A stretch of DNA of 64,000 nt from positions 64,001-128,000 of IMG/VR virus record IMGVR_UViG_3300032770_000003. One strand, written 5' to 3'. The notes beneath the pieces were generated by a model, which saw only the letters and a program-made list of their open reading frames with translations, ran no database searches and had not been told where the DNA came from. The translations under genes were made by a program, and so were the position numbers. Shown in pieces: positions 40,008 to 61,531 of this stretch (positions are counted from its first letter, which is position 1; the number at the start of each line of letters is the position of its first letter). This DNA is from a virus.

Positions 40008-41468
40008 TTACGTTGCCCGGTTCAAACGACCAACGTTGATGTACCGGAGCCACTTTTTCGTAGCAAACAGGATCGGGGTCCCGTACAGCAGCACCATCCA
40101 GCGGAACGCCGGAGCCAGCACCGCGAGGTCCATCCGCAGCATCGGGAGCAGCTGGCGGAAGGTCAGCACGGATGGGGTCATCTCACCCATGTACGCGATC
40201 TCGGTGAAGGGCAAGAGGAAGTTCACGTCGTTCACCGCCGTGGTTCCGCTCGCCGCCTGCGAAGCCGCAGGCACCTGCAGGATGAGAGAGTACTGAGTCA
40301 GATCCGTGGGCGTGGCGGTGCCCGAGGCTTGAGCAGCCGTCCGGTAGATCCGGAAGTACTCAGGAGGGAACGCACCGATCGCACCAGGGTTGGTGATGAC
40401 GAGGTGGATGTGATCACCAGGATCCTTCTGACCCTGGGTGATGTCCTGACCGTTGGCAGCTCCCATGATCAGCGGCGCCGACTCGCCGAAGCGGTTGGCC
40501 GCCGTCACCACGTAGGCGTAGTTGTTCGTCCCGGCAGCGGCGCCCTTGTTGAAGTCGCCGTCCGTGGCACCAGCCACCGACGCCGCGATCGAGGCCGGCG
40601 TCGCCGGAGCGTTCGGGCTCGTCGCTGCTGAGGGAGGAACCGGCAGCTGCTTGAGGAAGACGTCCGGGTTCAGCTCCATGACGCCCGCCTGGGTCATGAT
40701 GGAGTTGACCGACAGACCGACCATGCCGTTCTGCGGAGCCGGCAGCTGGATGCGCTCCTTCGGATAGAACGTCTTCACCAGGTCGGAGGCGACACGCGTT
40801 CCCAGCCACAGGTCGGTCGGGTAGGCGAAGTTCTCCACCAGCTGGTTGGCGCCTTCCTCGACGTCAGCCTCCTGCATGGGCTGCCCTTCGAGGTCGATGA
40901 ACGTGGTCGGATCGATCAGGGCATCGAGTCCGTCCCACGATTCGCTTTCGCCGTCGAAAGCCAGAGACGAGTCACCCTTGAACAGCGACGTCTCGATCCG
41001 CTCCAGGAGCCAGAGAATACCGTTCTGGTTCTCCAGAGCGATGACGTCACCGTGTGCCGGGTGAACTACCGTCATCTGGTGGGTGACCTCACGGGTTGTT
41101 CCGATGAACTTGACCAGCGAGGTACGGCGGGCGTAGCTCGTGTCCTGTGTGGGAGGCAGCTCGCCTTCCTGCACGAACGCGAAGGCGTCCGAACCGTAGT
41201 CGATGAGTTGGTTGTACTCTTCGACGGTGCTGTACGCGGGGGACTTGGGGATCTTCTTCCACAGCTTGATGTGATGAGCCGTGTAGGTGAGAACCTTGAG
41301 AGATCCTTCCAGCGACTCGACACGCAGAGCGGAACCACCAGTCTGATTCGTGATCTGGTAGCCGGCTTCGAGCGCCTTCGCCAGATCCTGCACAGACTGG
41401 CCTTGGTCGATCCCGAAGCCGTTGTAATTCCCCGCCGAGTACGGAGAGTAGTTAGACAAACCGATCAT
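40008..41468 (-). CDS. Major capsid protein (SPO1/Twort-like)
   Basis: 486 aa; KAL.AGY, GG.ALRVESLE, STV.EY, E...F.GD and LLYG.P motifs; AGGAG RBS. Confidence 0.92.
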   Translation of the reverse strand: MIGLSNYSPYSAGNYNGFGIDQGQSVQDLAKALEAGYQITNQTGGSALRVESLEGSLKVLTYTAHHIKLWKKIPKSPAYSTVEEYNQLIDYGSDAFAFVQEGELPPTQDTSYARRTSLVKFIGTTREVTHQMTVVHPAHGDVIALENQNGILWLLERIETSLFKGDSSLAFDGESESWDGLDALIDPTTFIDLEGQPMQEADVEEGANQLVENFAYPTDLWLGTRVASDLVKTFYPKERIQLPAPQNGMVGLSVNSIMTQAGVMELNPDVFLKQLPVPPSAATSPNAPATPASIAASVAGATDGDFNKGAAAGTNNYAYVVTAANRFGESAPLIMGAANGQDITQGQKDPGDHIHLVITNPGAIGAFPPEYFRIYRTAAQASGTATPTDLTQYSLILQVPAASQAASGTTAVNDVNFLLPFTEIAYMGEMTPSVLTFRQLLPMLRMDLAVLAPAFRWMVLLYGTPILFATKKWLRYINVGRLNRAT

Positions 41469-42646: not shown

Positions 42647-44338
42647 CTAGTGAGTTCCAGCGATTGCTGTGAAGATGGCGTCAGCCAGGGCCTGCGCCAC
42701 GGGATAGCTGTAGCCCCGCCGGGCCTGCAGATAGCCGAGAGCCTCTTGATACGAGATCTTCTCTGCCTTCTTGATGTGGTGACCGGGGAACGTCTGAATC
42801 TTGGCGCTGCCTTCGAGCGACTGAGGTCGGAGCACGCCACCCATGCCACCGGCGGTGAGTGCCTTCTCCTCTTCCTCGGTCTTCGTGGGCGCTGCCATGG
42901 ACTTCAGCGCGGGGCCACAGGTACAGCACCCACCCTTGCAGACGTCGTCCCAGGGATGCAGGCACCACTTCTGCTTGCCCAGTGACTTGACGATCTCGGC
43001 CCAGGTGTTGGTGTTTACAGGAGAGTTGTGTGCTACAATCCCATTCGCCTCATACCACCCCAACGACGTATCGAGATTGTAAACATGGCCAGACCAATCG
43101 AACCGTCGCGAGCTAGCGAGATCGCTGAAGCCTATCGCTTGGGAGAGCGTCCGGCCGCTATCGCCGAACGTTACGGAATCACTCGTGAGGGAGTCTGGCT
43201 CATCGCCAAAAGACTCGGCGTACGGCGAGATCGCTCTGAAGGGCAAAAGCTCCGCTGGCAAAACGCCATTCCCGCTGAGCGCAAGAAGTGGGAAACCGAA
43301 GGGGCCAAGCATCTGCGAAAGCAGCCCATTCCCGAAGAAGCTCGGCACAAGATCGCGCAGTTTCGGGAGGAACACCTTACGCTTGTCGGCCGCGGCGAGC
43401 GCGTCCTTGCCGAACTTCTCAAAGAACGCGGAATCCAATCGGTACTGCAGAAGGCCGTCGGTCGATACAATATCGACGTTGCCGCCGCATCCGTCGCCGT
43501 GGAAATCTTTTTCACCAACCGTACAAACCCTGTGAAGGGAACGCGTCCGGGAGGAAATGCGCGCAAGTTCAAATACCTGCTCGAAAGTGGGTGGCACATT
43601 CTGTGCATCATGGGTTCCAATCGTCGACGCAATCGACGACCCGGCAGTTTTCGTCCAGCCGACCAGATCACGGTTGAAACGGCCGATGCGGTAGCGGCCT
43701 TTATCAAGCTGACCAAGCGGTACCCAACCATGATCCGTGAATATCGGGTGATTCGGTGTTCCGGTGAGCTTCTCACCAGTAGCCAGTACGATCTCAACCA
43801 TCTGGCCGGTGTACCAACGTCGGCTGACCTTTTTTGACGCACCACAGACGCGAACGTCGCCAGGGAAACAGGCAGTAATCGCCACATCCTGCAGCCAGCA
43901 CTTGGCGATGGTATTCCCCTCTCGCCGAAGCACCTTGCCCTGGATCGAGAAACCAACCTTCCGATTGGACTCGTTGGCTGCGAGCGCGGTGATGTGGTCC
44001 CACCAGTACTCAGCGCGCTCCTTGCCCTTATACAAAAACCCCTTCAACCAGAGCCCAGCCGGGGTGATCCGGCATTCCGCGGGTTCGCCGACCTTGTGCT
44101 CAGGGCCCTCTTTGTGGTCGTCGTTGATGTAGCCGTACTTGAGGAAGTAGCCGTAGTCGATCCCGTTCTGACGGACCACTTCACCCTGAAGGTCACGGTC
44201 ATCTGTGGACGCGACCCCTTGGATCCAGCGCTTGCCGTCCTTACTCTCAGCCTTGGAGATCTTCTCCACCGGCATGAAGAAGTGGAAGGTAGAACCGGTG
44301 CCCAGCAAACGGTCTTCTATACCGTCCACTAAGCGCAT
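42647..44338 (-). CDS. Prohead protease containing an intein
   Basis: I.G.AST...D.QGE, G..NDDH, GFSIQG and VAITA|SPVN motifs; ATG 44338 with GGAGG RBS. Confidence 0.9.
   Translation of the reverse strand: MRLVDGIEDRLLGTGSTFHFFMPVEKISKAESKDGKRWIQGVASTDDRDLQGEVVRQNGIDYGYFLKYGYINDDHKEGPEHKVGEPAECRITPAGLWLKGFLYKGKERAEYWWDHITALAANESNRKVGFSIQGKVLRREGNTIAKCWLQDVAITACFPGDVRVCGASKKVSRRWYTGQMVEIVLATGEKLTGTPNHPIFTDHGWVPLGQLDKGRYRIGRFNRDLVGWTKTAGSSIASTIGTHDAQNVPPTFEQVFELARISSRTRSLHRVCTVGEKDFHGDGCGGNVDIVSTDGLLQYRLDSAFFEKFGKDALAAADKRKVFLPKLRDLVPSFFGNGLLSQMLGPFGFPLLALSGNGVLPAELLPFRAISPYAESFGDEPDSLTSDSVTFGDSGRTLSQAIGFSDLASSRRFDWSGHVYNLDTSLGWYEANGIVAHNSPVNTNTWAEIVKSLGKQKWCLHPWDDVCKGGCCTCGPALKSMAAPTKTEEEEKALTAGGMGGVLRPQSLEGSAKIQTFPGHHIKKAEKISYQEALGYLQARRGYSYPVAQALADAIFTAIAGTH
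43029..43039 (+). promoter_or_regulatory. Candidate extended -10 promoter for the antisense nuclease
   Basis: TGTG-c-TACAAT about 45 nt upstream of ATG 43085. Confidence 0.5.
43085..43837 (+). CDS. HTH + DUF559/Vsr-like PD-(D/E)xK endonuclease, antisense within the intein
   Basis: 250 aa; N-terminal HTH (EAYRLGERPAAIAERYGITREGVWLI), then E..L...L..RGI...Q..VG.Y.ID......VEI...L...GW.IL pattern. Confidence 0.8.
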   Translation: MARPIEPSRASEIAEAYRLGERPAAIAERYGITREGVWLIAKRLGVRRDRSEGQKLRWQNAIPAERKKWETEGAKHLRKQPIPEEARHKIAQFREEHLTLVGRGERVLAELLKERGIQSVLQKAVGRYNIDVAAASVAVEIFFTNRTNPVKGTRPGGNARKFKYLLESGWHILCIMGSNRRRNRRPGSFRPADQITVETADAVAAFIKLTKRYPTMIREYRVIRCSGELLTSSQYDLNHLAGVPTSADLF

Positions 44339-44856
44339 GTCACGTGCCTCCATCTCTTCCCCTGAGTGATCAGAGCAATGGCGGAACGTGTGACATTCAG
44401 CCTAGTGGCGATCCAACTCTGGGATCGCCCCAACCTTCGCCAGTTCAATACTTGCTGAATATCCGCTTCAGAAAGCTTAGCGCTACCACGCGGATGAGCG
44501 GCGCCCTTTGGGGCATTGGTACGTCCCCACGCTACGCAATCAGCGCGATTCTGGCGGTGAGTACCCTCGCTCAGATGATCTGGATTCACACAGTGGCGGA
44601 CATCGCAAGCGTGTAACGTTTCCATCCCCGGTAAGAGCTGGCGGCCTAGCTTCTGTTCCAAAACCAGCCTGGCAGCGATACGCGGACGACCGTTGAACCA
44701 AAACCACGCACAACCTTTGTTGTTCCTTGCACCTGTCCAGAGATGGCAAGGCCCCAGCCCTGGACGAGCCTCAGGCCCATTCAGGTCAATGAACTTCCGG
44801 AACCGGAAGGTCTCGCCTTCACCAAGCAGCTGATCGTTGATCTCTGTGAGTCGCAT
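44329..44856 (-). mobile_element. Free-standing HNH homing endonuclease with C-terminal HTH
   Basis: C.LWTGA, H.CD...CVNPDHL..GT...N..D and KL.E.D....GRSQ..IA....V motifs. Confidence 0.88.
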
Positions 44857-44978: not shown

Positions 44979-45167
44979 TCACTTGTCCAAGTACAGCTGG
45001 GGACCCGGATCGGGCGGCGCGGGGAGCTTCACCTCTTCGCCGCAGCTTTTACAGACTGCGTAATACCCGTCAGCGCGCAGCAAAACCACCTTCGCGCGCA
45101 CCTTCCCCCAGCCCGCGGTGCCTTTGACGATCACCTCGGAACACTGACACGTGAGGAGAGCGTCTAC
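44979..45167 (-). CDS. Zinc-ribbon-like small protein (no canonical start before first CxC)
   Basis: Read by hand: (V)DALLTCQCSEVIVKG...YAVCKSCGEEVKLP...DK*. Confidence 0.45.
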   Translation of the reverse strand, partial: VDALLTCQCSEVIVKGTAGWGKVRAKVVLLRADGYYAVCKSCGEEVKLPAPPDPGPQLYLDK

Positions 45168-45598
45168 TCCTGCCGCGTCAGCGTCTTGTAGGTTGAGTCT
45201 GACAGCCAGGGCGGTCTTCCTTGTTCAGTGAGCGCTTTGGTGAGTGCTGGACGCATTGCATCGTATTCGGCGTCAGGTAGCACGACGGCGCCGACGTAGC
45301 CCTTCATGTCGCGGACGTAGGGGCAGGTTTTCGGGAAGGCGCCCTTGCTGATGGCCTCAGCAAGCGGCATGCACCAGCCCTTCGCCACCTCGTGCCGGCG
45401 CTCGTAGACCGAGCAGCAGCTCTTCCCGTTGCTCTTGTCCACCGCCAGGTGCTTGCAGCGCAGATCGGGGATCAGCACCGTTGTGGTCCCGCTCTTGGCG
45501 ACGGGGACTGTCGCGTGACAGCACGCACCACAGTCGACACACATCGACTCCAGCTCAGACTTCGACAGCCCCTCCAGATGGATCGGCAACCGCGTCAC
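45164..45598 (-). CDS. YkgJ/CxxCxxCC-family cysteine cluster protein
   Basis: CVDCGACC...RC..L......C.VY..R motif. Confidence 0.75.
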   Translation of the reverse strand: MTRLPIHLEGLSKSELESMCVDCGACCHATVPVAKSGTTTVLIPDLRCKHLAVDKSNGKSCCSVYERRHEVAKGWCMPLAEAISKGAFPKTCPYVRDMKGYVGAVVLPDAEYDAMRPALTKALTEQGRPPWLSDSTYKTLTRQE

Positions 45599-45846
45599 TT
45601 CTTCTGTTCCTCGCCGTCTTTGCTCGACGGCACCAACTGACCGTCCGCCGAATAGATGTAATAGGGCCCGTCGCCCTCTTGCGCGGCCACGAGCTGCTTG
45701 GCCTCTTCGGGGGTGGCGACAGAGCCCACGAGGAAAAGCCCCTGGTCTTCAGGATCGCCAAAGTCGTCAACGCCGACGACGTTGTAACCGACCTGCGGGC
45801 GAAGCGCCTGCTTCTCCGCCAGGGCCTGCATGATGTCAATTGCCAT
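45595..45846 (-). CDS. Hypothetical protein
   Basis: 83 aa, coupled to the next gene. Confidence 0.6.
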   Translation of the reverse strand: MAIDIMQALAEKQALRPQVGYNVVGVDDFGDPEDQGLFLVGSVATPEEAKQLVAAQEGDGPYYIYSADGQLVPSSKDGEEQKK

Positions 45847-45858
45847 TAACGCACTTAC

Positions 45859-46356
45859 TTACCCATTGGGATGCAGCGGATGAAGCTCGCTCTCCAATTC
45901 GGCCCAGAGAGCCTCATGCTCCCCCGGCGTGTAGAGAATCGCACGGAAGAGCAGGTGATCACTCTGATACTTTTTGTAGTAGGTGGAACCTCGCCAGGAA
46001 CGACGGACGTTGGCGAGACGATCAAGCAGCTTCAGAAACACCGCGTCGGTTCCAGCTGCGCGAATCTTTCGCCAGCTCGCCGCCAGCCGTTCGTCACGCG
46101 GGGGCCCCTTGGGCAGCTTGGTCACCGCCTCCACCAGGCTCGTGACCTCGGAACCGAAGCTCTTGCGCACTTCCTCCGCGGTGGTGGGCGTGTCTTCCAG
46201 GACGTCGTGCAGGTAGGCAGCAGTCTGCACCGTCGGAGAGGCGCCGTAGAGAAGCGACAGGGCGTAGACCTCATCCAGGTGAGACAGATAGGAGACATGC
46301 CCGTACATCTGCTTGCCATGGGCGGCAGCAGCAAATTCACGGGCTTTCGTCATCAT
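45859..46356 (-). CDS. Small alarmone hydrolase (SpoT/Mesh1-like HD domain)
   Basis: A..AH..Q, Y..H, LHDVLEDT, V..VTK and K..DR..N motifs. Confidence 0.88.
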   Translation of the reverse strand: MMTKAREFAAAAHGKQMYGHVSYLSHLDEVYALSLLYGASPTVQTAAYLHDVLEDTPTTAEEVRKSFGSEVTSLVEAVTKLPKGPPRDERLAASWRKIRAAGTDAVFLKLLDRLANVRRSWRGSTYYKKYQSDHLLFRAILYTPGEHEALWAELESELHPLHPNG

Positions 46357-46402
46357 CCTATCCACGGTGAAAGGTCGATCTGCGCAAAAGTCCAAAAGGT
46401 AG

Positions 46403-47278
46403 TCAAAGGCAGTGAAACAGCTGCTGGACGATCGGGGGGCAGATGGGCTTGGCGGCCTGTAGGCCACTGTCCGCGGCGACCGTATAGTCCAACGCTTGCT
46501 GGGCGTACTGATTGATCGGTTCAGCCTGGCGCGACAATGCCTCCTCCTGCTCAGGAGTACGGGGCTTGTAGATATCGTGAATGAAGTTCTGCATTTGACT
46601 CTGTGCTGTAGTCTGGACCTGAACTTCCTTATCTAATCCATCGCTGTCACGAATCGTAAGATGGTAGGCGCGGTATAGGCCCTTTGGGTTAGAGACGTAG
46701 TCGTCTTCCCCGACAACTTGAAAGTTCTGCTTGATGCGGTCAACCAAAGCCATCTGTTCCGCTGCATTATTCACCACACAGCGCATGCCTGTGCAGTCTT
46801 GAAGGCGTGACGCATCACTATACTCTTTCGGTTTCCTGACGAGTTTGCCCAACGCACTAGAGATGTCTTTGACTCGTCCGCTAACACGCGCTCCCTCTCG
46901 GGCGGGCACTAGGGCGTGTAGCTTGTTTACCGCTGCCGATAATGATGCTTTGTGTTGAGCTAATAGCTGTTGAGCAAGTTGAACATGCTCTTGAGTACTC
47001 ATCGTAGGAGGCAACCGACCGTCAAACTGTTGTGTTAACCGTGCGGTTTCCTTTTCTGGTGGTTCCGTCTCCTTACCTTGACTCCGGCTGCCCTCTGTTG
47101 TTGCAGCTGCTCCTGGCTTTCGGTAGTACGTCTCAGTGAATGATGTTCCGTCGCGGGTTACCTGCTCCTGAACAGCTTCCAACCCTTCGTGACCTGCCTT
47201 GAGCAGATCGAAGAGGGACTCGACACCTGTGTGTCGTCCCCCCTTGATCAGGTCAAACAAGCTCTCTACGCCAGGCAT
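46403..47278 (-). CDS. Small alarmone synthetase (RelA/SpoT synthetase domain) with N-terminal head-protein tag
   Basis: GRVK...SA..K, QD..G.R.V, DY...PK..YRAYH and EVQ..T motifs. Confidence 0.88.
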   Translation of the reverse strand: MPGVESLFDLIKGGRHTGVESLFDLLKAGHEGLEAVQEQVTRDGTSFTETYYRKPGAAATTEGSRSQGKETEPPEKETARLTQQFDGRLPPTMSTQEHVQLAQQLLAQHKASLSAAVNKLHALVPAREGARVSGRVKDISSALGKLVRKPKEYSDASRLQDCTGMRCVVNNAAEQMALVDRIKQNFQVVGEDDYVSNPKGLYRAYHLTIRDSDGLDKEVQVQTTAQSQMQNFIHDIYKPRTPEQEEALSRQAEPINQYAQQALDYTVAADSGLQAAKPICPPIVQQLFHCL

Positions 47279-48210
47279 CCGAATGTCCTCCGGACTTCAC
47301 CAGGGCACTCAGGCTTGGGTACGTCATCACCATTTCCGTCGAGAGCTGCGTAGTACCGAGAGAGGTCGTTGACATACGCGCGAATAGCACTCCCCGCGTG
47401 GGCTAGAGCGCGTTCCTGGCTCTCCGTCCGTGGCTTGTAGACGTCATGGGCCCAGTTGGCCAACTTGAGCTGATTGTGTGTCAGCACCTGAATCTCTTTT
47501 CCGTTGCCGTCCTTGTCGCGTACCACCACGTGATACGCGCGATAGTAGCCGCCTTTGGGACTCGTGAGGTAGTCGTCTTCCGTGATCACATCCCAGCGCG
47601 CCTTCACCCGCTCGACAGTCCGCTGGACCTCGTCCGTCGTGTCGACGACGATCCGAACCCCTGTCAGATCCTGGAGGTCAGCAGCCGATGCGTAGTGGGG
47701 CTTGTCGTGGAGCTTGCGGATCGTGCTCTCCAGGCTCTTGAGACGGCCCTCCACCTTGGAGCCTGGTAGCGCTACCTGGCGAACCTCGGACAGGAACCGC
47801 GCGTAGGTCCGCTTGTGATGCAAGATCTCATCCTGAGCGATCGCGACGTGCTCATCAAAGGAGTGCGGTCCAGGCATCTTCTCGCCGAACTCATCGCGCA
47901 GAGCTTGGAGCTGCGGTGTCGTCTCGACGGTATCGTGCCCACGGGCCGCCAGCTCCAGACTCAACGCCTTGAGCATTTCCTCCACGTCGGCACTCGGCTG
48001 ACCGCCTGGATCGTTCTTCTCTGAGCGCCACTGCATCGTGTGCATGAGGGTCATCAGAGCCCGTTTCTTGGCCAGGGCCGCTGCCTGGTTCTCGGTATCC
48101 AGTCCCTCGAAGACTTTCAGGAGATCGAGGATACGATCAGTAGGGACTCGGGAGTCTGTGATCAGACTGTCCAGTCGATCAGTCATCGCATGAATATCTG
48201 CTGCATTCAT
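47266..48210 (-). CDS. Small alarmone synthetase (RelA/SpoT synthetase domain)
   Basis: GRLK...S...K, QDLTGVRIV, DY...PK..YYRAYH and EIQ..T..Q...A...H..YK; ATG 48210 (ATGA overlap). Confidence 0.9.
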   Translation of the reverse strand: MNAADIHAMTDRLDSLITDSRVPTDRILDLLKVFEGLDTENQAAALAKKRALMTLMHTMQWRSEKNDPGGQPSADVEEMLKALSLELAARGHDTVETTPQLQALRDEFGEKMPGPHSFDEHVAIAQDEILHHKRTYARFLSEVRQVALPGSKVEGRLKSLESTIRKLHDKPHYASAADLQDLTGVRIVVDTTDEVQRTVERVKARWDVITEDDYLTSPKGGYYRAYHVVVRDKDGNGKEIQVLTHNQLKLANWAHDVYKPRTESQERALAHAGSAIRAYVNDLSRYYAALDGNGDDVPKPECPGEVRRTFGCLA

Positions 48211-49694
48211 CGACGTCCTGCCCAATCCGCCTCGTAGGCCGCCTGTTCCTGGGGTGTGGCGAAGCCAGGTGCCACCTCCGGTTCTGTGACCTTCGCTCCC
48301 CGCTTCTGCTTGATGACCCTGCCCTCTGCATCGAACTTCTGCTTACCGATGAACTTTTGCTTCGTCTTCGGTTGCCAGTCGTCCGACACGAAACCTCTGT
48401 TTTCTACTATCGTTCGAACGTACTCATCGAAGACGCCGACGTGTGTCCCCACCTGCTCGCGACTGAACGGCACACCCTTCGTCAGGTATTTCTTGACCGC
48501 GTCCTGTACAGCGCTCCTGATGTTTTCAGTCCAGCGCTGCTCACGCTCAACCCGATCAGCCTCACGTCGACGAACCTGCTCAGGAAGGGGGCTGCCGTCG
48601 GACAACCAAGACGTGGTCGTACCGATCTGCTCTGCCCAATGGGCAAACTGGGCACTGAGATCGAACTTGTCGAGCACGCGATTGGCGATGGCACCCCAGC
48701 GCTGATCATCCGCCGGCAGCTGTGCTTTCTGCTTTATCTCCAGCGCACGCGCAGCGATGTGATCTTGGAACTCTTGATTCGAGATCGTCTTGTCATCATC
48801 GAGCCCATCTGCGTATGCGATGAGGTTGGCGAATCGTTCCACATACTGTTTGTATGAAACAGGCTGACCGCTCGGAACAGCCCACTCGTAGTTACCGAAC
48901 GGGTCCTCCACCCGCTCGAAGATCGGTTCGGTTGTTCCTGTCACAGGAAGCCCTAGAAGGTTCTCAGACACGTCACGAACACAGTGTTGCGCCAGTAGCT
49001 CTGTCGTGGCCTCCTCTAGCGCAGCATTCGGACGGTAGGCTGCGTTCCTCTCACCCTCCTCACCGATCAGCGTTCCTTCGTATTGGAAGATGTTGGAGGC
49101 ATGGTGCATGGACTCGTGAACGACCACTCTGACGCCATCCATAGTCCAGTCCCTGACTTTCTTCTCCGTGACGGCTTTGTAGACGTCTATGGCCACACTC
49201 GGAGTGATCTGAATCAGACCAATGCTTCGGTTGTACTCCCCAGCTGCCCAGTTCATCTTGGGGTTCACATCGAAGAACTTCAGAGCGTCAGGATCATTGG
49301 TTGCTTCTGGTCCCTTCAGCTTCCTAGCGATCTCTTTAGCTAGTGTTCGGAACTTGTCCTTGATGACAGGTGTGACCGCTTCTACGGCTTTCTTGGCATT
49401 CGCGCCGAACTCATCATACGAGCCAATGACACCGTAGTTCAGGTCGTCGTATTTGGGCAAGTCAACGGAACTCAGATTCAGGCTCGCTGACCCTTTGAAC
49501 GATGGAACCGGAGTTGGCTTCTCTGCCAACACCGTCTTCGGATCTCTGTCAGTCGCAGGCCGATCAGCTGTAGAGCGAACCCAGCGCTTAGACTGATAGG
49601 TAGTCCCGTCCTTACGGTGAACCTCGACGTCACGAAGGACGAGACCTCCCGCCTTCATGAAGTCGAACAAGCCGAGAACCGGCTCGGTAACCAC
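48207..49694 (-). CDS. Putative head-internal protein with zincin metallopeptidase motif
   Basis: VVHESMH (HExxH) plus downstream EEATTE; N-terminal KA..L....V.RKDG..Y....W motif. Confidence 0.7.
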   Translation of the reverse strand: MVTEPVLGLFDFMKAGGLVLRDVEVHRKDGTTYQSKRWVRSTADRPATDRDPKTVLAEKPTPVPSFKGSASLNLSSVDLPKYDDLNYGVIGSYDEFGANAKKAVEAVTPVIKDKFRTLAKEIARKLKGPEATNDPDALKFFDVNPKMNWAAGEYNRSIGLIQITPSVAIDVYKAVTEKKVRDWTMDGVRVVVHESMHHASNIFQYEGTLIGEEGERNAAYRPNAALEEATTELLAQHCVRDVSENLLGLPVTGTTEPIFERVEDPFGNYEWAVPSGQPVSYKQYVERFANLIAYADGLDDDKTISNQEFQDHIAARALEIKQKAQLPADDQRWGAIANRVLDKFDLSAQFAHWAEQIGTTTSWLSDGSPLPEQVRRREADRVEREQRWTENIRSAVQDAVKKYLTKGVPFSREQVGTHVGVFDEYVRTIVENRGFVSDDWQPKTKQKFIGKQKFDAEGRVIKQKRGAKVTEPEVAPGFATPQEQAAYEADWAGRR

Positions 49695-53129: not shown

Positions 53130-55067
53130 TCAGCCCGCCTTCGGTGGACTCTGTAAGAAGCTTTGCTCGAACCAGCTCATCAAGGGCGTGTCTTGGAATC
53201 CCGCTGCTGGTGAGCTGCCGCCTTGTGGCTGGCCGCCGGCCGTGATCGGTGCAGTCCTGGATCCGAGAGAGTAATCCGTGGAGCCAAGGGGTTGCTTGAC
53301 CGGCAAGCTTGGCGATGGCATCAAGCTGGGCTCGACGGGCGCGACGCCCAACAGATCCTGTTGATCGAGCAAGAAGCCGATGATCTCCTGGCGTGCCTGC
53401 TCTGGCTTGAGCCCCTCGAACGCGCATGCTTCCCCCCAGATCTTCGATGCAATCTCCATCAGCTGGGGATCGGGAACAGATCCGATCCGCCCCAAGAGTT
53501 GCTGGACTCCGTAGAGTGTTTCAACGTCGATCGGCGGTGGTCCCAACGGCATGCCGGTCATGGGGTTGAGGCCCATCATCGGTGCCATCGGATTCATCAT
53601 CGGTGCCGGTACTTCACTGCCCGGTACCGTCGGACCAATGTCGTTCGGCAGCAGCGCCTTTCCAACGTAGCGGCGCTTGCCACCACTGGTCTCTATGTAC
53701 TGTCCACCACGCGGTCCAAACTGTGGTGAGCCACCAAAGGAGTAGCCGTACTCACCGTAAGGAAGCTTCACATTCTCTCCCTCTTCTTTGCCCGGGATCC
53801 CAATATCCCACTCTTTCGGAGTCCTGAGCTTCGGTGCGCGGTAGTTGAATCCATACTTGGCAGCCAACGCTTGATGGACCCTGTGAGCAGCTTCGGAATG
53901 TGCATCACCCTGCACACCACGAACACCGGCGACGTTGTAGGCGTGCGAAAACAGTGCCTCATACATCAGCTTCCCCAACCCCTTCCCGCGATGAGCCTCA
54001 TCCAAGCCTGAGTGCGTTTCCACAGTAGAACCGCCTTCGTCGAACACACCCTGCGTATGGTGCACCGGACCACCGACTGTGCCCACGAGGTTTTGCCCAT
54101 GCCGCAGCTGGGCCTCCATCATCTCATTGTTGATGTTTCCTGTTTTCTCACCACGAAGACCAGTGTGGTTGACGGACAGTGTGTAGCCTTGCTGCTGAAG
54201 ATTCTCCGGCAGCATGTGCGAGTAGTCGAGGTCCTGTTCCCACTTGCCACCGGCGGTTTGCTCCTGCTTTCTTGGCGAACCAATAGGGTTCTGAGCCAAG
54301 GCAGCAGCTTTCTCGATCTCGCGGTAGAAGATGACCCCTCTACCAGACCCCACGTAGTGGTCGTCGTCATTCTCGTCGATGGGCTCAGCGTCGTCAGTAG
54401 CCGATGACTCTAGTCTTGCCGCCATCCGCTCCCGTGCGCCTGGTTTACGTTCTTCAAGCCGATCAACCATTCGGTCAAGGTCCAACGCCTTCTTCGCCTT
54501 GTCGGCGAGCATGCGCTTGAACTCGTCGAGACTCATCTCCTTCATGTCCCCGAAATAGCGCTTGTCGCTGTAGTTCTCCAGGAACGTCGCCTTGGCCTCT
54601 CGAACTGAGACGAAGCCGAGCATGACCTTCTGTTCATCCAGGCGACTGAAGCCGGGTCGCTTCATCTGATCGATGATGAACACCTTGTCGCTGTCATCGT
54701 TCGGGCCCAGAAAGACGTCGATCTCCTCTCCGTCGAGACCCTCTGTCCGGCGGATGTAGCCGTAGGGAACAGACATCTTGGTCTGCCCTGTCTGCTTGGT
54801 CACCGGATCTTGCCAGCTCAGCATCTGACCAGCGTTGGCTTCGATCGAAATCGGAATCCCCTGAAACACCACACGCCGGACGATCTTCCGCTGCAATGCC
54901 TTCTTCCACACAACAGCCTTCGCTGGCGTGGGCGTGAAGACGTCGAAGTGACGAGCCATCTCTAGTTCGTCGGCTGAATGATCATGCTGATCAGTCAGCG
55001 ACTTGGTCAGGCAGCTTCCGCCTCCGCTCGCGCAGTTCGCACAGCAGGATTTCTTCACGTCTGTCAC
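53130..55067 (-). CDS. Polyvalent protein: inorganic pyrophosphatase-like domain + GNAT acetyltransferase
   Basis: G..ISIE..G, YGYI..T.G.DG..IDVF.G and DE.K.MLGF (InPase-like); HRGKGLG..MY (GNAT acetyl-CoA motif). Confidence 0.8.
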   Translation of the reverse strand: MTDVKKSCCANCASGGGSCLTKSLTDQHDHSADELEMARHFDVFTPTPAKAVVWKKALQRKIVRRVVFQGIPISIEANAGQMLSWQDPVTKQTGQTKMSVPYGYIRRTEGLDGEEIDVFLGPNDDSDKVFIIDQMKRPGFSRLDEQKVMLGFVSVREAKATFLENYSDKRYFGDMKEMSLDEFKRMLADKAKKALDLDRMVDRLEERKPGARERMAARLESSATDDAEPIDENDDDHYVGSGRGVIFYREIEKAAALAQNPIGSPRKQEQTAGGKWEQDLDYSHMLPENLQQQGYTLSVNHTGLRGEKTGNINNEMMEAQLRHGQNLVGTVGGPVHHTQGVFDEGGSTVETHSGLDEAHRGKGLGKLMYEALFSHAYNVAGVRGVQGDAHSEAAHRVHQALAAKYGFNYRAPKLRTPKEWDIGIPGKEEGENVKLPYGEYGYSFGGSPQFGPRGGQYIETSGGKRRYVGKALLPNDIGPTVPGSEVPAPMMNPMAPMMGLNPMTGMPLGPPPIDVETLYGVQQLLGRIGSVPDPQLMEIASKIWGEACAFEGLKPEQARQEIIGFLLDQQDLLGVAPVEPSLMPSPSLPVKQPLGSTDYSLGSRTAPITAGGQPQGGSSPAAGFQDTPLMSWFEQSFLQSPPKAG

Positions 55068-55531: not shown

Positions 55532-57856
55532 TTACAGATACGTCGATAACCAACTTTGTAGGGCCTTGTAGGCAGTTGGCTCGATCGGCGTCTGCTGACT
55601 CCCTGCATTCGTCGGCGGTGCCGCTGGTCCTACCATCCTGGTAGGACGGGGCATACCCATCGGCGCCTGGACTGTGCTGGAGCCCGCACTCGGCTGTACC
55701 TGGTACATGCCCGGGATTGGCCCTTGTCGCTGGGTAGTCGGCATTGGGTTACCAACCTGTGGCTTTCCTTGATCAGGATTGAGAAGACCCTGCAAACTCG
55801 CGAATGGATCTCTCGGTGTAGACCCAGATGGTGAGCCGCCTGGAGGTCCCGCCGGTCCCCCTGGTCCCATGCCCTGGGTCCCCATGGGGGGCTGTCCCTG
55901 GGGCGTGCCCATCGGCGGTTGGCCCGGGTTCGAGGACGGTGGCTGAGCCGCGGGCGGGGGCATCTGCGGCTTGGGCATCTGCATGCTCGGCAGCCCGGGT
56001 GCCTGCCCGGACGGGGCTCCGGCACCTGGTTGACCACCAGCCTGCGGCATGGCCGGACGCATCATGTTCGGTGCCCCTGGCTGGGGGCCGCCCATGGGCC
56101 CGCCACCGCCTGGAGGTGTCATTCCTCCCCCCGGAGGTCCGCCGCTGTTCGGAGGCGGCCCGCCACCCATGGGTGGAACGCCACCGCCCATTCCAGGAGG
56201 TCGGGACGGAGGAGTCATACCGCCGCCCCCCGGCGGCTGCATTCCGCCCATGCCCTGTCCGCCACCCATCCCAGGTGCACCACCCATAGGAGGCGGTGTA
56301 GGGGGGCGTGGGGGCGCAGGGGGCTGCATCCCACCCGGACTCATCATCGATTGGCCCCCGGGCGGCGGCGAGGGAGGTGGAGCTGGTGGTTGGCCGCCCA
56401 TTCCCCCTCCACCCATCCCGCCTGGCATCTGTGGCGGCCTGACCTGCCCTGGAGGAGGTTGGCCAGCTCCCATCGCGCCCATCCCTGGCATCGCGCTCTG
56501 ACCCATCCCTGGCGGCATGGGAGGCGGCGCAGGCTTCGCGAGCGCGGGTCCGGGCGGCTGCCCCCCCATACCACCTCCGGGCGGCGCTCCCCCGAATTGC
56601 GGCCCGCCCGGAGGTGGCGAGGGAGAACCCATTCCCTGAGATCCGGGAGGCGGTCCCATCCCCGGCATGCCTGGACCCTGACCCGGTGTCGGGGGCGTCG
56701 CCCCGCCCATCCCGGGCGGCTTGGGCATCTGAGCCATGGGCATCCCAGCTCCCGCGCCCTGCGTGTTCGGCTGGGTCGCACCCGGACCTGGCATCATCGT
56801 GCGCCCACCCTGCGGCGTGCTCATCGGCGGTCCCTGCGGGGGCTGGAACTTCTGAGCGAAACGCTCCATGGGGCTCTGTGAGTCAGATCCCATCTGTTTG
56901 TGCGCCGCCGACGCTTGCAGGTGCTGGGAAGCTTCCTGGGGGCTGCCAGCGGCGCCTGCCAGCTTCTCGTGCTGAGCGGCTGCAGCTTCGTGATCCTGCT
57001 TGTCGAAATCCTTGTGAGCAGGGTGGAAAGGGTCGGCGTAGATCGGAATCCCAGAGGGAGCGAGTCCGATCGGGTTCCCCTGGTGAGGTATCTGCTGCGG
57101 CTGCGAGGCTCCCCGCATCCCCACACCAGGGATCTGGGGAGCGCCCTGACCCATGGGCGGCTGTTGATGCTGCTGCTGTTGCAGCGGAACATCCATCGTC
57201 CCGAGTGCCTTAGTAAACGACTTCAGGATGTCAATGGATTTGTTCGCAAAGTAGTTCGGATCTTTGCTTAGCTTCGAGTGGGCACCCTCAGCCATGCTGT
57301 GAGCTGCTGCTCTTCCGGCGGCGAGTTCCTTGCTCGCGTAGCTTTGCTTGGCATATTCCTGCGCGACTGGTTTATTGCCACCAGCATAAGCATTGGAACG
57401 TTCTGTCGCCGCCCGCTTGTTATGCATTTTGGCAGCGTCTTCATGATCTTCTTTCGTGAAATCAGCATGCTGTTGCTGGTGCGCTTTGATCTCTTGCTTC
57501 AGCTTGTCGGTAGCGTCCGTGCCACCAGATTGGGCTGAACGTGCTGCTGACACAAAAGAGTCATTAGGACCGTAAACAGGCTTCCCCGATCGCGTGTGGC
57601 CGATGACGTTGCCACCCCGCGATCCCTCGCCGCCGCCCGCCTTGAGCACCAGCTCCGGATTCACTTCGGGCGCGAAGCGGTTGGGCTGGAAGGCAGACGG
57701 GTAGCCGTGGAAGGCACCTCTGCGCGTGATGGGAGTTCCCATGCGGAAGTGTTCTTCGGCACGCGCCTGGTGGGTCTGGGCCTTTTCGATGGGCTCAGCG
57801 AATTGCGGATCGGCCCAGTTCAGTGGTCGCTTGGAGCCAAAATCGAAGTTGCTCAT
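55532..57856 (-). CDS. Pro/Gly/Met/Gln-rich low-complexity head-associated protein
   Basis: 774 aa; GEGSRGGNVIGHTRSGKPVY motif; more than 400 aa of PPG/GMG repeats. Confidence 0.75.
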   Translation of the reverse strand: MSNFDFGSKRPLNWADPQFAEPIEKAQTHQARAEEHFRMGTPITRRGAFHGYPSAFQPNRFAPEVNPELVLKAGGGEGSRGGNVIGHTRSGKPVYGPNDSFVSAARSAQSGGTDATDKLKQEIKAHQQQHADFTKEDHEDAAKMHNKRAATERSNAYAGGNKPVAQEYAKQSYASKELAAGRAAAHSMAEGAHSKLSKDPNYFANKSIDILKSFTKALGTMDVPLQQQQHQQPPMGQGAPQIPGVGMRGASQPQQIPHQGNPIGLAPSGIPIYADPFHPAHKDFDKQDHEAAAAQHEKLAGAAGSPQEASQHLQASAAHKQMGSDSQSPMERFAQKFQPPQGPPMSTPQGGRTMMPGPGATQPNTQGAGAGMPMAQMPKPPGMGGATPPTPGQGPGMPGMGPPPGSQGMGSPSPPPGGPQFGGAPPGGGMGGQPPGPALAKPAPPPMPPGMGQSAMPGMGAMGAGQPPPGQVRPPQMPGGMGGGGMGGQPPAPPPSPPPGGQSMMSPGGMQPPAPPRPPTPPPMGGAPGMGGGQGMGGMQPPGGGGMTPPSRPPGMGGGVPPMGGGPPPNSGGPPGGGMTPPGGGGPMGGPQPGAPNMMRPAMPQAGGQPGAGAPSGQAPGLPSMQMPKPQMPPPAAQPPSSNPGQPPMGTPQGQPPMGTQGMGPGGPAGPPGGSPSGSTPRDPFASLQGLLNPDQGKPQVGNPMPTTQRQGPIPGMYQVQPSAGSSTVQAPMGMPRPTRMVGPAAPPTNAGSQQTPIEPTAYKALQSWLSTYL

Positions 57857-60814: not shown

Positions 60815-61531
60815 TCAAGCCTCCGCACACAACACGGACTGACGTGTGGTTTTTGTCAATCTCGTAATGTTGACTGAGCCGTCCGACTCCCTTGATTGCA
60901 CAGTTGCTAAAGCAACTTTCTTCATTACAGAACTGAGTCTGACACCACAAGCACGTGCCCACTGCTCTGGAGATTTGGCTGCCTTAGTACTGTTGCAGGG
61001 CTTGCACGCCGGAGCCAAGTTGTGTCGAGCGTGAAGTCCGCCCTTTACCAGAGGTACGATATGGTCAAGTGTCGTGGCGGCTCGTTTGCGGCACCAAGCG
61101 CATTTGCCATCGAACGTACGAAAAAGGACGCGCAAGAATTCCAGACTAACAATCTCAACAGTGGCTGAGTGTATTCGTGCGCGACGACGATGCCAGCGCA
61201 ACAAGGCACCAATTTTGCCCACAGGGCTGTAGTAATAGGCGCGGTTCTGTTTGAGTATCGCAGCCCTGTGCTTTGTATATCGAGAAGCGTGATAGGCCGC
61301 TATCTTTGTCTTGTTCGCCTGTCGGTAGGCGATGTCCTTTTCTCTGTTGTTACTGCGGTAACGTAATTCGATTTCACGAACCTTGGCGTAGTTGGTCTTG
61401 CGATAGACCTTGGCACGAAGGCGATGACACACACGACACCAACCTCCGTATCCATTCGGACAATTCTTATTCCTGACGAACGCACTGAGTGGAAGTGTGT
61501 GTCGACATTTGATACAAATGCGCGTGATCAT
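60815..61531 (-). mobile_element. Free-standing HNH homing endonuclease
   Basis: C.KC....P...F, CAWC and DHIVPL.KGG.H...NL.PAC..CN..K motifs. Confidence 0.9.

Follow-up and report, generated by a model that had tools for sequence, protein, structure and literature searches.

The closest described system is the Apk2-IapK(Tis1-like)-Aph1 cassette, which has been experimentally characterised in temperate phages of Bacteroides caccae, S. pneumoniae and M. haemolytica (PMC10083569, PMC12226406). Packaged and injected RelA/SpoT domains that trigger an alarmone-like response had already been predicted by Iyer et al. in 2017, where neither a small partner nor a hydrolase pairing was described for these domains (PMC5512222). 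In the T4 internal proteins and Alt, and in P1 Dar, enzymes encoded among the head genes carry a short N-terminal signal, are cut by the prohead protease and are injected with the DNA (PMC5512222). Whether phages deliver alarmone synthetases together with their DNA, and with what product, is a question that the MuF-toxin work explicitly raises (PMC10083569). The idea of a toxin accompanied by two antidotes, with enzymes presumed to enter the capsid and to be injected along with the DNA, is already known, and what is new in the locus described here is a small, 83-aa partner of a different synthetase family.

The locus was analysed in a window of 64,000 nucleotides, positions 64,001 to 128,000 of the IMG/VR record IMGVR_UViG_3300032770_000003, which belongs to a large, uncultured, 96%-complete genome of a Herelleviridae-like phage (171,494 bp); every feature given below lies on the minus strand. 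About 17 kb of enzyme genes extend from the portal gene (61528-63969; Phage_portal, 1.7e-19; split by a LAGLIDADG intein) to the prohead protease gene (42647-44353; phrog_1028, 2.7e-44), and the synthetases SAS2 (47266..48210) and SAS1 (46403..47278) and the hydrolase SAH (45859..46353) lie within this stretch. The original prediction of two RelA/SpoT synthetase genes in the head region, between portal and prohead protease, with an untagged HD hydrolase beside them, was borne out by the Pfam matches, the intact catalytic motifs and the positions of the genes. Upstream lies an InPase and GNAT protein (53130..55067; Pfam InPase, 2.4e-32) whose PHROG matches are families of minor head, virion structural and DarB-like proteins; InPase is a marker domain of phage polyvalent and minor-head proteins. 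Next to SAS2 is a 495-aa neighbour (48207..49694) with no Pfam or PHROG family, whose translation reads an N-terminal tag and an HExxH motif (HESMHH). The genes are tightly packed: an ATGA stop/start overlap joins the 495-aa gene to SAS2 downstream, so that the two are translationally coupled, SAS1 starts 13 nt inside SAS2 and is preceded by GGAGGA, and the gaps are about 47 nt from SAS1 to SAH and 12 nt from SAH to the 83-aa gene. A promoter and terminator scan of the cassette gave no signal above shuffled expectation, and none between SAS1 and SAH, which leaves a separate control of SAH unsupported rather than disproved. The DNA of the region had no match among 50,697 phage records, and in protein searches alone the closest cultured relatives were Herelleviridae, with capsid proteins of about 45% identity. 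The sole PADLOC match was to PDC-S33 (~1e-15), a candidate family without a described function.

The cassette parallels Apk2-IapK-Aph1 but is built from different protein families. Both have a head-module pyrophosphokinase of the RelA/SpoT superfamily, then a small active-site occluder (here a predicted one) and an HD hydrolase that removes the product (here putatively so), and in both the presence of the hydrolase varies, that of the small partner hardly at all. They differ in that a short tag takes the place of the MuF domain, the catalytic domain is RelQ/RelP-like and not Tas1-like, the hydrolase is PaSAH/MESH1-like, and the 83-aa partner resembles no solved chain detectably and is not a detectable homologue of IapK/Tis1. 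Moreover, two synthetase paralogues are present here, in a 171-kb phage in which no tyrosine integrase was found. In common with the polyvalent and MuF proteins of Iyer et al., homologues of the synthetases are fused to InPase, MuF, ddrB-ParB, LPD1 and Zeta domains, and the window neighbours include InPase-GNAT and zincin-like proteins; unlike them, the window synthetases are separate genes with a short tag (degenerate in SAS2), not parts of one giant polypeptide. Membership in the polyvalent proteins was rejected for the window on the same ground, since its synthetases are single-domain genes and the fused versions occur in relatives and in other phages. As in the T4 internal proteins, Alt and P1 Dar, enzymes are encoded among the head genes with a short N-terminal sequence, here a putative loading signal, and the tag sequence is unrelated to the T4 capsid-targeting sequences.

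By sequence, both synthetases are members of the RelA/SpoT superfamily (PF04607) with their catalytic motifs intact, and they are the only RelA_SpoT matches in the genome. SAS2 (314 aa; RelA_SpoT 2.1e-18, 67.1 bits against a cut-off of 27) has an open reading frame from 47266 to 48225, with the ATG at 48210 as its most likely start, and consists of a helical stretch of some 100 aa at the N-terminus, with a degenerate remnant of the tag, followed by a RelQ/RelP-like catalytic domain (pLDDT >94 over residues 100-314 of the AF2 model) in which 17 of 17 family-invariant residues are kept. SAS1 (291 aa; RelA_SpoT 8.4e-13, 49.0 bits, same cut-off) begins with the tag, has its catalytic domain from roughly residue 85 to 291, and is about 38-40% identical to SAS2 and 47% identical to a tagged orthologue in the relative L009. 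It likewise keeps all of the family invariants (R135, K137, S141, K145, D161, G164, R166, Y202, H206, E218, Q220 and T223), and the R-x-K, S..K, D-x-x-G-x-R, Y..H and E-x-Q motifs are invariant in family alignments of 37-39 sequences that include SAS1 and SAS2. Two motifs deviate in both enzymes: the Arg of E-x-Q-(I/V)-R-T is lost (L in SAS2, Q in SAS1), and Ala replaces Ser in S-x-H.

Word-indexed protein searches returned only two matches for SAS2 and nothing but the query for the 83-aa protein, and these near-empty searches were replaced by an exhaustive profile search and locus scans. The synthetase profile reached 195 cluster representatives at E<=1e-30, and the long members sampled were portal-SAS (P0040, P0052), MuF-InPase-SAS (P0045), InPase-Zeta_toxin-SAS (P0026), InPase-SAS (P0065), ddrB-ParB-SAS (P0068) and LPD1-SAS (P0003). 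One annotated candidate, the 'GTP pyrophosphokinase' of Streptococcus phage Javan576, was excluded, as it is a RelQ beside an NAD kinase and a pseudouridine synthase and looks like host flanking DNA. Against the PDB, the family profile matched RelQ/RelP at 2.5e-21 to 1e-16, long Rel at 1e-15 to 1e-10, CapRel at 5e-11 and FaRel2 at 4e-7, with 80 bits for RelQ/RelP versus 46 and 33 for CapRel and FaRel2. In a Foldseek search with the SAS2 model, ranks 1-13 were all RelP or RelQ except for two S. aureus Rel chains. No Tas1 chain was among the PDB profile matches at E<=10 or among the Foldseek matches listed, and membership in Tas1/Apk was rejected on this result and on the best folds being RelP and RelQ. 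Apk2 membership was rejected as well: Phage_Mu_F has no match in either synthetase or elsewhere in the genome, and the Tas1-like R-Y-T, G-x-N and Y-H signatures are absent. Sequence profile, predicted fold and signature motifs all mark the family as RelQ/RelP-like and not Tas1/Apk2-like. The best profile and fold matches are to B. subtilis YjbM/YwaC and S. aureus RelP (PDB 5DED, 6FGK, 6EWZ), with which the family has in common R-x-K, D-x-x-G-x-R, Y-R-(A/S)-x-H, E-x-Q-x-x-T and an HD-x-YK motif in which H234, Y237 and K238 are conserved. It is set apart from them by an identity of only 20-27%, a G-loop that is one residue shorter in most family members, an extra C-terminal helix ending in C-P...C-L, and a viral, head-associated context with dedicated putative antidotes.

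SAH (164 aa; HD_4 1.5e-14, 54.5 bits against a cut-off of 27.2; phrog_990 8.8e-29) holds the only HD_4 match in the genome. Its open frame runs from 45859 to 46467 with a likely start at M38 or M39; the gene as called in the database encodes 164 aa. Throughout the family alignment the H..HD..ED..K..DR..N residues do not vary, and SAH keeps the metal and catalytic residues H25, H49-D50, E53-D54, D111 and N115. With the AF2 model (pLDDT 95), the top Foldseek matches were P. aeruginosa SAH (TM 0.79) and MESH1 (TM 0.80), with 0.79-0.81 to both overall, and Aph1 (7SMG) came at rank 40 with 20% identity. The Aph1 signature consists of D24, D116, R119 and K133-Y134 (PMC10083569). In SAH, the segment equivalent to Aph1 D24 reads Q-M-Y-G, which is also where Rel hydrolases have the guanine-contacting Arg-Arg-Ser, and the positions at which Aph1 has D116 and R119, at +2 and +5 after the DRLxN Asn, are Arg and Trp. 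Of the Aph1 signature SAH keeps only the conserved C-terminal Tyr, a residue that (p)ppApp hydrolases are noted to have (PMC10083569). Membership in Aph1 was rejected on these residues and on the fold rank, and by motifs and modelled fold SAH is PaSAH/MESH1-like. An HD_4 gene directly follows a family synthetase in seven contexts: the window, its apparent relatives L006, L009/L010, L016 and L018, and the related portal-fusion phages P0040 and L012. This recurrent order fits an antidote role for SAH.

Going by the motifs, the synthetases would most likely produce (p)ppGpp or pGpp, the products characteristic of RelQ/RelP-type enzymes, of which RelQ is a homotetramer with an allosteric pppGpp site. 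Guanosine-type enzymes are marked by G-V-R in place of R-Y-T and by (A/S)-x-H in place of G-x-N (PMC12226406); the window synthetases read G-V-R, A-x-H and V-L/V-Q, such that syn2 and syn3 are guanosine-like and syn4 deviates in both. The product call is weak, since motif swaps failed to change the specificity of Apk2 (PMC12226406) and since the window enzymes have signature deviations of their own. It is quite possible, if not the expectation, that the same cassette makes another product, either (p)ppApp, as in Apk1, Apk2 and FaRel, or tRNA pyrophosphorylated at its CCA end, as in FaRel2 and CapRel. SAS1 and SAS2 each deviate at two signature positions, CapRel is still detected by the family profile, and SAH lacks the guanine-contacting Arg-Arg-Ser but has the Tyr of the (p)ppApp hydrolases; against this, RelQ/RelP outscore CapRel and FaRel2 by 30-45 bits, Tas1 goes undetected, the syn2 and syn3 positions are guanosine-type, and SAH neither carries the Aph1 signature nor ranks Aph1 among its closer folds.

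The cassette runs on past the hydrolase to a small partner protein, which the original prediction had overlooked. This 83-aa acidic protein (45595..45846) belongs to no known family and has no Pfam match, and its family profile found no credible match in the PDB (the best, at E 0.007, was an unrelated 110-aa chain named NF1). Its homologues are small cassette ORFs of L011, L013, L018, L010 and a Nitrososphaera provirus (E 1e-6 to 9e-27). They lie directly after the synthetase in L011, L013, the provirus and L021-L026, and after the hydrolase in the window, L010, L018 and L006. In 8 of 8 viral loci found independently by profile search, a synthetase adjoins the family member, and L008, which has no synthetase, is also without an 83-aa homologue. 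On this ground a generic head-assembly gene is unlikely, and the pattern of co-occurrence identifies the 83-aa protein as a dedicated partner of this synthetase family. In L001, a 58-kb fragment, the synthetase is kept with neither hydrolase nor clear 83-aa homologue. Two further small genes, which may be generic head-assembly genes, recur in the same setting. A 144-aa Cys-rich protein (45164..45598; no Pfam match) co-travels with the cassette in relatives, with homologues of 53-74% identity at the same position in L016 and L010, and in L008 its homologue is the N-terminal part of a fusion with the tag and two zincin domains. A zinc-ribbon-like ORF (44979..45134; CxxC...CxxC; open frame reaching 45224) is a recurrent co-traveller that resembles, by eye and unaligned, the 82-aa ORF of L016 and the 81-aa ORF of L001, which are homologous to each other and to ORFs after the small partner in L011, L013 and L018.

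Structure prediction points to the active site as the target of the partner. The predicted complex of SAS1 (residues 85-291) with the 83-aa protein had a median ipSAE of 0.84 (runs of 0.67, 0.84 and 0.86), as against 0.01 for the best of three controls; of solved complexes 58 of 80 came up to the ipSAE mark, and of mismatched pairs 2 of 110, counts that are rough here since the alignments were ones made for this analysis. The runs had at least 55% of their contacts in common, with a partner pLDDT of at least 74. The predicted interface on SAS1 comprises R135, K137, S141, K145, D161, G164, Y202, H206, E218, Q220 and Y237-P239, and the conserved D27-D28-F29-G30 loop of the partner rests on these residues. 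At the interface SAS1 and SAS2 are 64% identical, compared with 40% overall. These models support binding of the 83-aa protein across the SAS1 active site, and make it a candidate active-site-plugging inhibitor.

The tag region of SAS1 (47123..47278) consists of two tandem ESLFDL(I/L)K(G/A) units followed by the hairpin-like motif VTRDGTSFTETYY. That a tag is shared by one synthetase and a head-region neighbour, as originally proposed, proved real: the strict pattern [LIVMF][FL]x[LIFM][MILF]K[GAS], sought in all six frames of the genome, has three occurrences, two of them at the N-terminus of SAS1 and the third at that of the 495-aa neighbour. Of a looser form, 7 occurrences fall in the 5,158 aa of the portal-to-protease genes and 4 in the other 47,880 aa (Poisson p ~4e-7, for a motif defined post hoc). 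The SAS2 copy is degenerate, RILDLLKV..EGLD as against SLFDLLKAGHEGLE, and in the SAS2 orthologue of L001 the entire N-terminal extension is absent. In L001 and L008, the tag heads a Zeta-toxin kinase in the SAS1 position, and in L006 and L008 it lies between the domains of fused proteins, the L006 protein being a zincin domain and a synthetase in one polypeptide. The tag behaves as a module, its strict form confined in this genome to the portal-protease genes. Synthetase domains are found C-terminally fused to portal, MuF-InPase, InPase-Zeta-toxin and LPD1/zincin proteins; these fusions in homologues, together with the short motif, lend indirect support to a packaging of the synthetases in virions.

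We somewhat favour, as the best explanation of the gene content, conserved order and fusions, a late-operon cassette of effectors plus antidotes, in which SAS2 and SAS1 would be loaded into the virion and SAH and the 83-aa active-site binder would guard the producing cell. During virion production, the synthetases would be rendered harmless by the 83-aa protein (through stoichiometric block) and by SAH (through removal of product). The short N-terminal tag, which likely also holds a prohead-protease cleavage site after the Lys, would direct SAS1, and probably SAS2, into the prohead, and the synthetases would then be ejected with the DNA, the antidotes staying behind. In the newly infected cell, the synthetases would use ATP as pyrophosphate donor and the 3'-OH of a purine nucleotide as acceptor. 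Encoded in a late operon, the antidotes could not switch off the injected enzyme early in infection. The benefit of injecting a (p)ppGpp synthetase is not obvious, since (p)ppGpp restricts T7 infection (PMC13483052).

It could also be envisioned, though we consider it unlikely, that nothing is packaged, and that synthetases, inhibitor and hydrolase form a self-contained late circuit by which the producing cell's level of alarmones or purine nucleotides is set, for instance in lysis timing or nucleotide redirection, with the tag serving another end such as co-assembly or turnover by the prohead protease. In favour of this, a single late operon holds all four genes in close coupling, and promoter and terminator signals in it do not exceed chance; the tag is missing from SAS2 and from several family members (L016, L001), and solo hydrolase homologues are common in the non-structural regions of phages (197 phage records; in L017 beside the DNA polymerase). 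On the other hand, the catalytic domain is repeatedly found fused to virion components (portal and MuF proteins), unrelated phages, the Nitrososphaera provirus among them, have kept the location between portal and protease, and a predicted stoichiometric active-site blocker together with a hydrolase looks like containment, not tuning. Finally, a polymorphic toxin in the MuF sense, by which virion-borne synthetases would harm recipients without the immunity genes (through competitor killing, rival-phage exclusion or abortive hits) and not aid the phage's own infection, would account for the fast evolution of the synthetases (35-58% identity versus 79-90% for the capsid proteins, L001 and L008 included), the Zeta-toxin kinases in the same slot and the likeness to Apk2 systems with a toxin and two immunity genes (PMC10083569), but seems improbable, as the family is closest to housekeeping-type RelQ/RelP and not to the very fast Tas1-type toxins, and as a search for tyrosine integrases found none in the 96%-complete genome, which makes a stable lysogen expressing immunity genes less likely.

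The locus and its relatives provide a second, non-Tas1 lineage in which to pursue the delivery question, one in which the portal-fused homologues must be in the virion. For experiments it offers two catalytic domains that can be taken separately, a hydrolase, and a small protein whose inhibitory loop is predicted; members of the small partner family could also be of use in inhibiting RelQ/RelP-type enzymes. Should the product be (p)ppGpp, these phages would trigger a response that restricts other phages (PMC13483052), which would need explanation. More tentatively, and as a possibility we would not put foremost, the cassette may represent a widespread, undescribed three-part system made up of a virion-borne RelQ/RelP-like synthetase of the (p)ppGpp type, held on the virion through a short tag or as a fusion with portal, MuF or polyvalent proteins, a new family of acidic inhibitors of about 70-85 aa whose conserved D-D-F-G loop would enter the nucleotide site, and a PaSAH-like hydrolase as backup. 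Were this true, bacterial phages and at least one thaumarchaeal provirus would inject a trigger of the stringent response, and not an ATP-draining (p)ppApp toxin.

The two alarmone synthetases and the HD hydrolase that the original prediction placed between the portal and prohead protease genes were recovered there by Pfam. SAS2 (47266-48210; 2.1e-18) and SAS1 (46403-47278; 8.4e-13) match RelA_SpoT, and SAH (45859-46353), which comes next, matches HD_4 at 1.5e-14. All three are on the minus strand, and neither family has any other match in the genome. The 495-aa gene upstream (48207-49694) meets SAS2 in an ATGA overlap, SAS2 and SAS1 overlap by 13 nt with GGAGGA ahead of SAS1, and gaps of ~47 nt and 12 nt follow SAS1 and SAH, respectively. 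These genes are coupled translationally or nearly so, and a scan for promoter- or terminator-like sites between cassette genes found none above chance.

The record (171,494 bp, rated 96% complete, the window covering 64001-128000) carries nearly all its long ORFs from ~1 kb to 64 kb of the window on the minus strand, and these encode tail, baseplate and head products. At ~45% identity, the major capsid protein (40008-41468) resembles its counterparts in Herelleviridae, e.g. Bacillus phages CP-51 and SPO1 relatives. Neither a tyrosine integrase nor a MuF protein was found across the genome. The portal (61528-63969, minus) and prohead protease (42647-44353, minus) genes lie ~17 kb apart, and the interval holds the genes of a Pro/Gly-rich 774-aa protein, an InPase-GNAT protein, a 1046-aa protein and the tagged 495-aa protein with its HExxH motif, besides SAS2, SAS1 and SAH. 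The portal ORF holds Intein_splicing, LAGLIDADG_3 and Phage_portal matches, making its LAGLIDADG intein the second in an essential head gene of this phage; the protease is also interrupted by an intein (CFPGD...VAHNS), through which a 269-aa HTH-containing ORF (43028-43837, plus) runs antisense. Immediately upstream of the protease gene, and overlapping it, is an HNH endonuclease gene (44329-44856, minus), the first ~20 residues of whose product resemble the protease N-terminus (MRLTEINDQLLGEGETFRF versus MRLVDGIEDRLLGTGSTFHF). This gene is missing in L001, L006 and L008, phages whose capsid proteins are 79-90% identical, and their proteases (270-282 aa) are intein-free. Low-complexity Pro/Gly/Met/Gln sequence makes up most of the 774-aa protein (55532-57856, minus), whose N-terminal part is conserved and which has motifs of the GSRGG..G.T.SGKP.Y type; the protein is conserved in L001 (540 aa) and matches no family. 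A C-terminal region, PPID..E..GVQ..L..IGS..DP.LM.IA.KIWG, is common to window 53130-55067 (minus), L001 2781-3863 and L008 3-746 under different N-terminal heads: InPase plus GNAT in the window, InPase alone in L001, and in L008 a head ending in an H-G-N-C-K-C motif, MuF-like by eye. It looks like a minor-head-protein-like scaffold undergoing domain swapping.

The cassette extends past the three genes noted first. A hydrolase lies directly 3' of a family synthetase in the window, in its apparent relatives L006, L009/L010, L016 and L018, and in two related phages with portal-synthetase fusions, P0040 and L012. In loci lacking the hydrolase, a 63-76-aa ORF comes after the synthetase instead, and these ORFs are homologous (E 1e-6 to 9e-27) to the window's 83-aa gene (45595-45846), which there comes after the hydrolase. 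One of them is gene 7 of Pro-Nvie1, a provirus of Nitrososphaera, whose gene 6 is a family synthetase, and therefore the pair spans the divide between viruses of bacteria and archaea; in this thaumarchaeal provirus the synthetase (5813-6656) directly follows the portal. When IMG/VR was searched with the profile of the 83-aa family alone, eight loci were returned and a synthetase was adjacent in every one: in six it ends just ahead of the small ORF, in L019 (same contig as L006) the hydrolase sits between the two, and in L020 the small ORF is closely followed by a synthetase gene of the opposite orientation. The 58-kb fragment of L001 has a synthetase with neither antidote, i.e. no hydrolase and no clear 83-aa homologue.

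In controlled complex prediction, where none of three controls exceeded an ipSAE of 0.01, SAS1 (residues 85-291) and the 83-aa protein reached a median of 0.84, a mark that 58 of 80 solved complexes attained, as did 2 of 110 mismatched pairs (rough counts, from self-built alignments). At least 55% of contacts agreed between runs, and the partner pLDDT was at least 74. The model supports binding at the level of a prediction. Its confident contacts on SAS1 are catalytic residues (R135, K137, S141, D161, G164, Y202, H206, E218, Q220 and Y237-P239), and the partner presents a conserved acidic D-D-F-G loop, which is how an active-site plug would look. SAS2 shares 64% of the SAS1 interface residues versus 40% over the whole length, so the 83-aa protein may cover SAS2 as well. 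Because no solved chain matches the small protein credibly, the high score is unlikely to come from a similar complex known to the predictor.

Searches of PDB sequences with the synthetases, both single-sequence and family-profile, ranked RelQ/RelP first (2.5e-21 to 1e-16), followed by long Rel/RelA (1e-15 to 1e-10), CapRel (5e-11) and FaRel2 (4e-7), with Tas1 undetected in either; the AF2 model of SAS2 (pLDDT >94 over the catalytic domain) likewise has RelP and RelQ as its best Foldseek matches. At the positions reported to separate guanosine from adenosine 3'-pyrophosphokinases (PMC12226406), the consensus of the family follows the guanosine type (G-V-R, S-x-H, V-R), and SAS1 and SAS2 depart from it at two (Ala for Ser; Leu or Gln for Arg). 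Since motif swaps leave specificity unconverted (PMC12226406), the signature is only a lead towards a guanosine-type substrate. The SAH model (pLDDT 95) is nearest in fold to P. aeruginosa SAH and MESH1 (TM about 0.8), Aph1 ranking 40; its family lacks the Arg-Arg-Ser that touches guanine in Rel hydrolases and, by comparison with PMC10083569, the Aph1 signature, and conserves a C-terminal Tyr.

The closest known arrangement is Apk2-IapK-Aph1, in which a head-module pyrophosphokinase toxin nearly always comes with a small immunity protein that occludes it and, variably, with a product hydrolase (PMC10083569, PMC12226406). The window cassette shares this logic of synthetase, small partner and hydrolase, inhibition by its partner being predicted. 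Its synthetases carry no MuF and a domain that is not Tas1-like, and its hydrolase has no Aph1 signature, on which grounds membership of Apk2 and Aph1 was rejected; the cassette is a parallel system assembled from other families.

The synthetases belong to a large, distinct family, for which an exhaustive profile search found 195 cluster representatives at a cut-off of E<=1e-30 and 1,027 at the looser E<=1e-10. All eight long members scanned against Pfam have the synthetase as the C-terminal domain, and seven have a recognisable N-terminal one: portal (twice), MuF-InPase, InPase-Zeta toxin, InPase alone, ddrB-ParB or LPD1. Of these partners, portal and MuF proteins form part of the virion. InPase, ddrB-ParB and LPD1 are hallmarks of phage polyvalent proteins, for which Iyer et al. 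predicted packaging and injection, and packaged RelA/SpoT domains have been a general idea since 2017 (PMC5512222). In both portal-synthetase phages (L012 and the contig of P0040), a protein of 694-736 aa that matches PI3_PI4_kinase (8554-10638 in L012) comes after the hydrolase, and a MuF protein comes after that; it is unusual for the head module of a phage to include such a lipid/protein-kinase-like domain.

The tag (LFDLxK[GA] plus a hairpin) that had been noticed on one synthetase and on neighbouring head-region proteins held up in its strict form: translating the whole genome in six frames gives only three copies, two of them in SAS1 and the third in the 495-aa protein; SAS2 has a degenerate copy only. 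A relaxed form (hydrophobic-x-hydrophobic-hydrophobic-K-[GAS]), picked post hoc, shows 16-fold enrichment among the genes from portal to protease, where most copies fall in the first 25 residues. L001 keeps a SAS2 orthologue (58% identity) and has a tag-Zeta-toxin kinase in the SAS1 position, L008 lacks a synthetase and carries a tag-Zeta kinase together with a tag-linked double zincin, and L006 encodes a single zincin-LPD1-tag-synthetase polypeptide. Among phages with such similar capsid proteins the cargo region is reshuffled, and the tag, found at N-termini or between domains, therefore behaves as a portable module, in keeping with a signal for loading and/or cleavage. The window, L001, L006 and L008 also conserve similar Lys-[AGS] sites near the N-termini of the capsid protein and the scaffold and near the C-terminus of the protease, from which we infer a possible Lys-specific prohead protease. 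The tag-led kinases (L001 7576-8649, L008 3509-4612) match Zeta_toxin at 3.7e-31 and 1.5e-25, that of L001 also weakly matching the XopAJ/AvrRxo1 zeta-toxin family in NCBIfam. Family members elsewhere (P0037, P0053, P0064, P0070 and P0090) carry a short hairpin-like motif, G-x-(G/P)-G-x-(Y/W)-x-Y-x-Y, which separates the domains in 2-3 copies where the synthetase-bearing protein has several, and lies close to the N-terminus where it has one; polyvalent proteins may use this motif generally as an inter-domain or loading module.

A gain for the phage from an injected synthetase is not obvious, since (p)ppGpp restricts T7 (PMC13483052). With the antidotes encoded by late genes, any enzyme that is injected would act unopposed early in infection.
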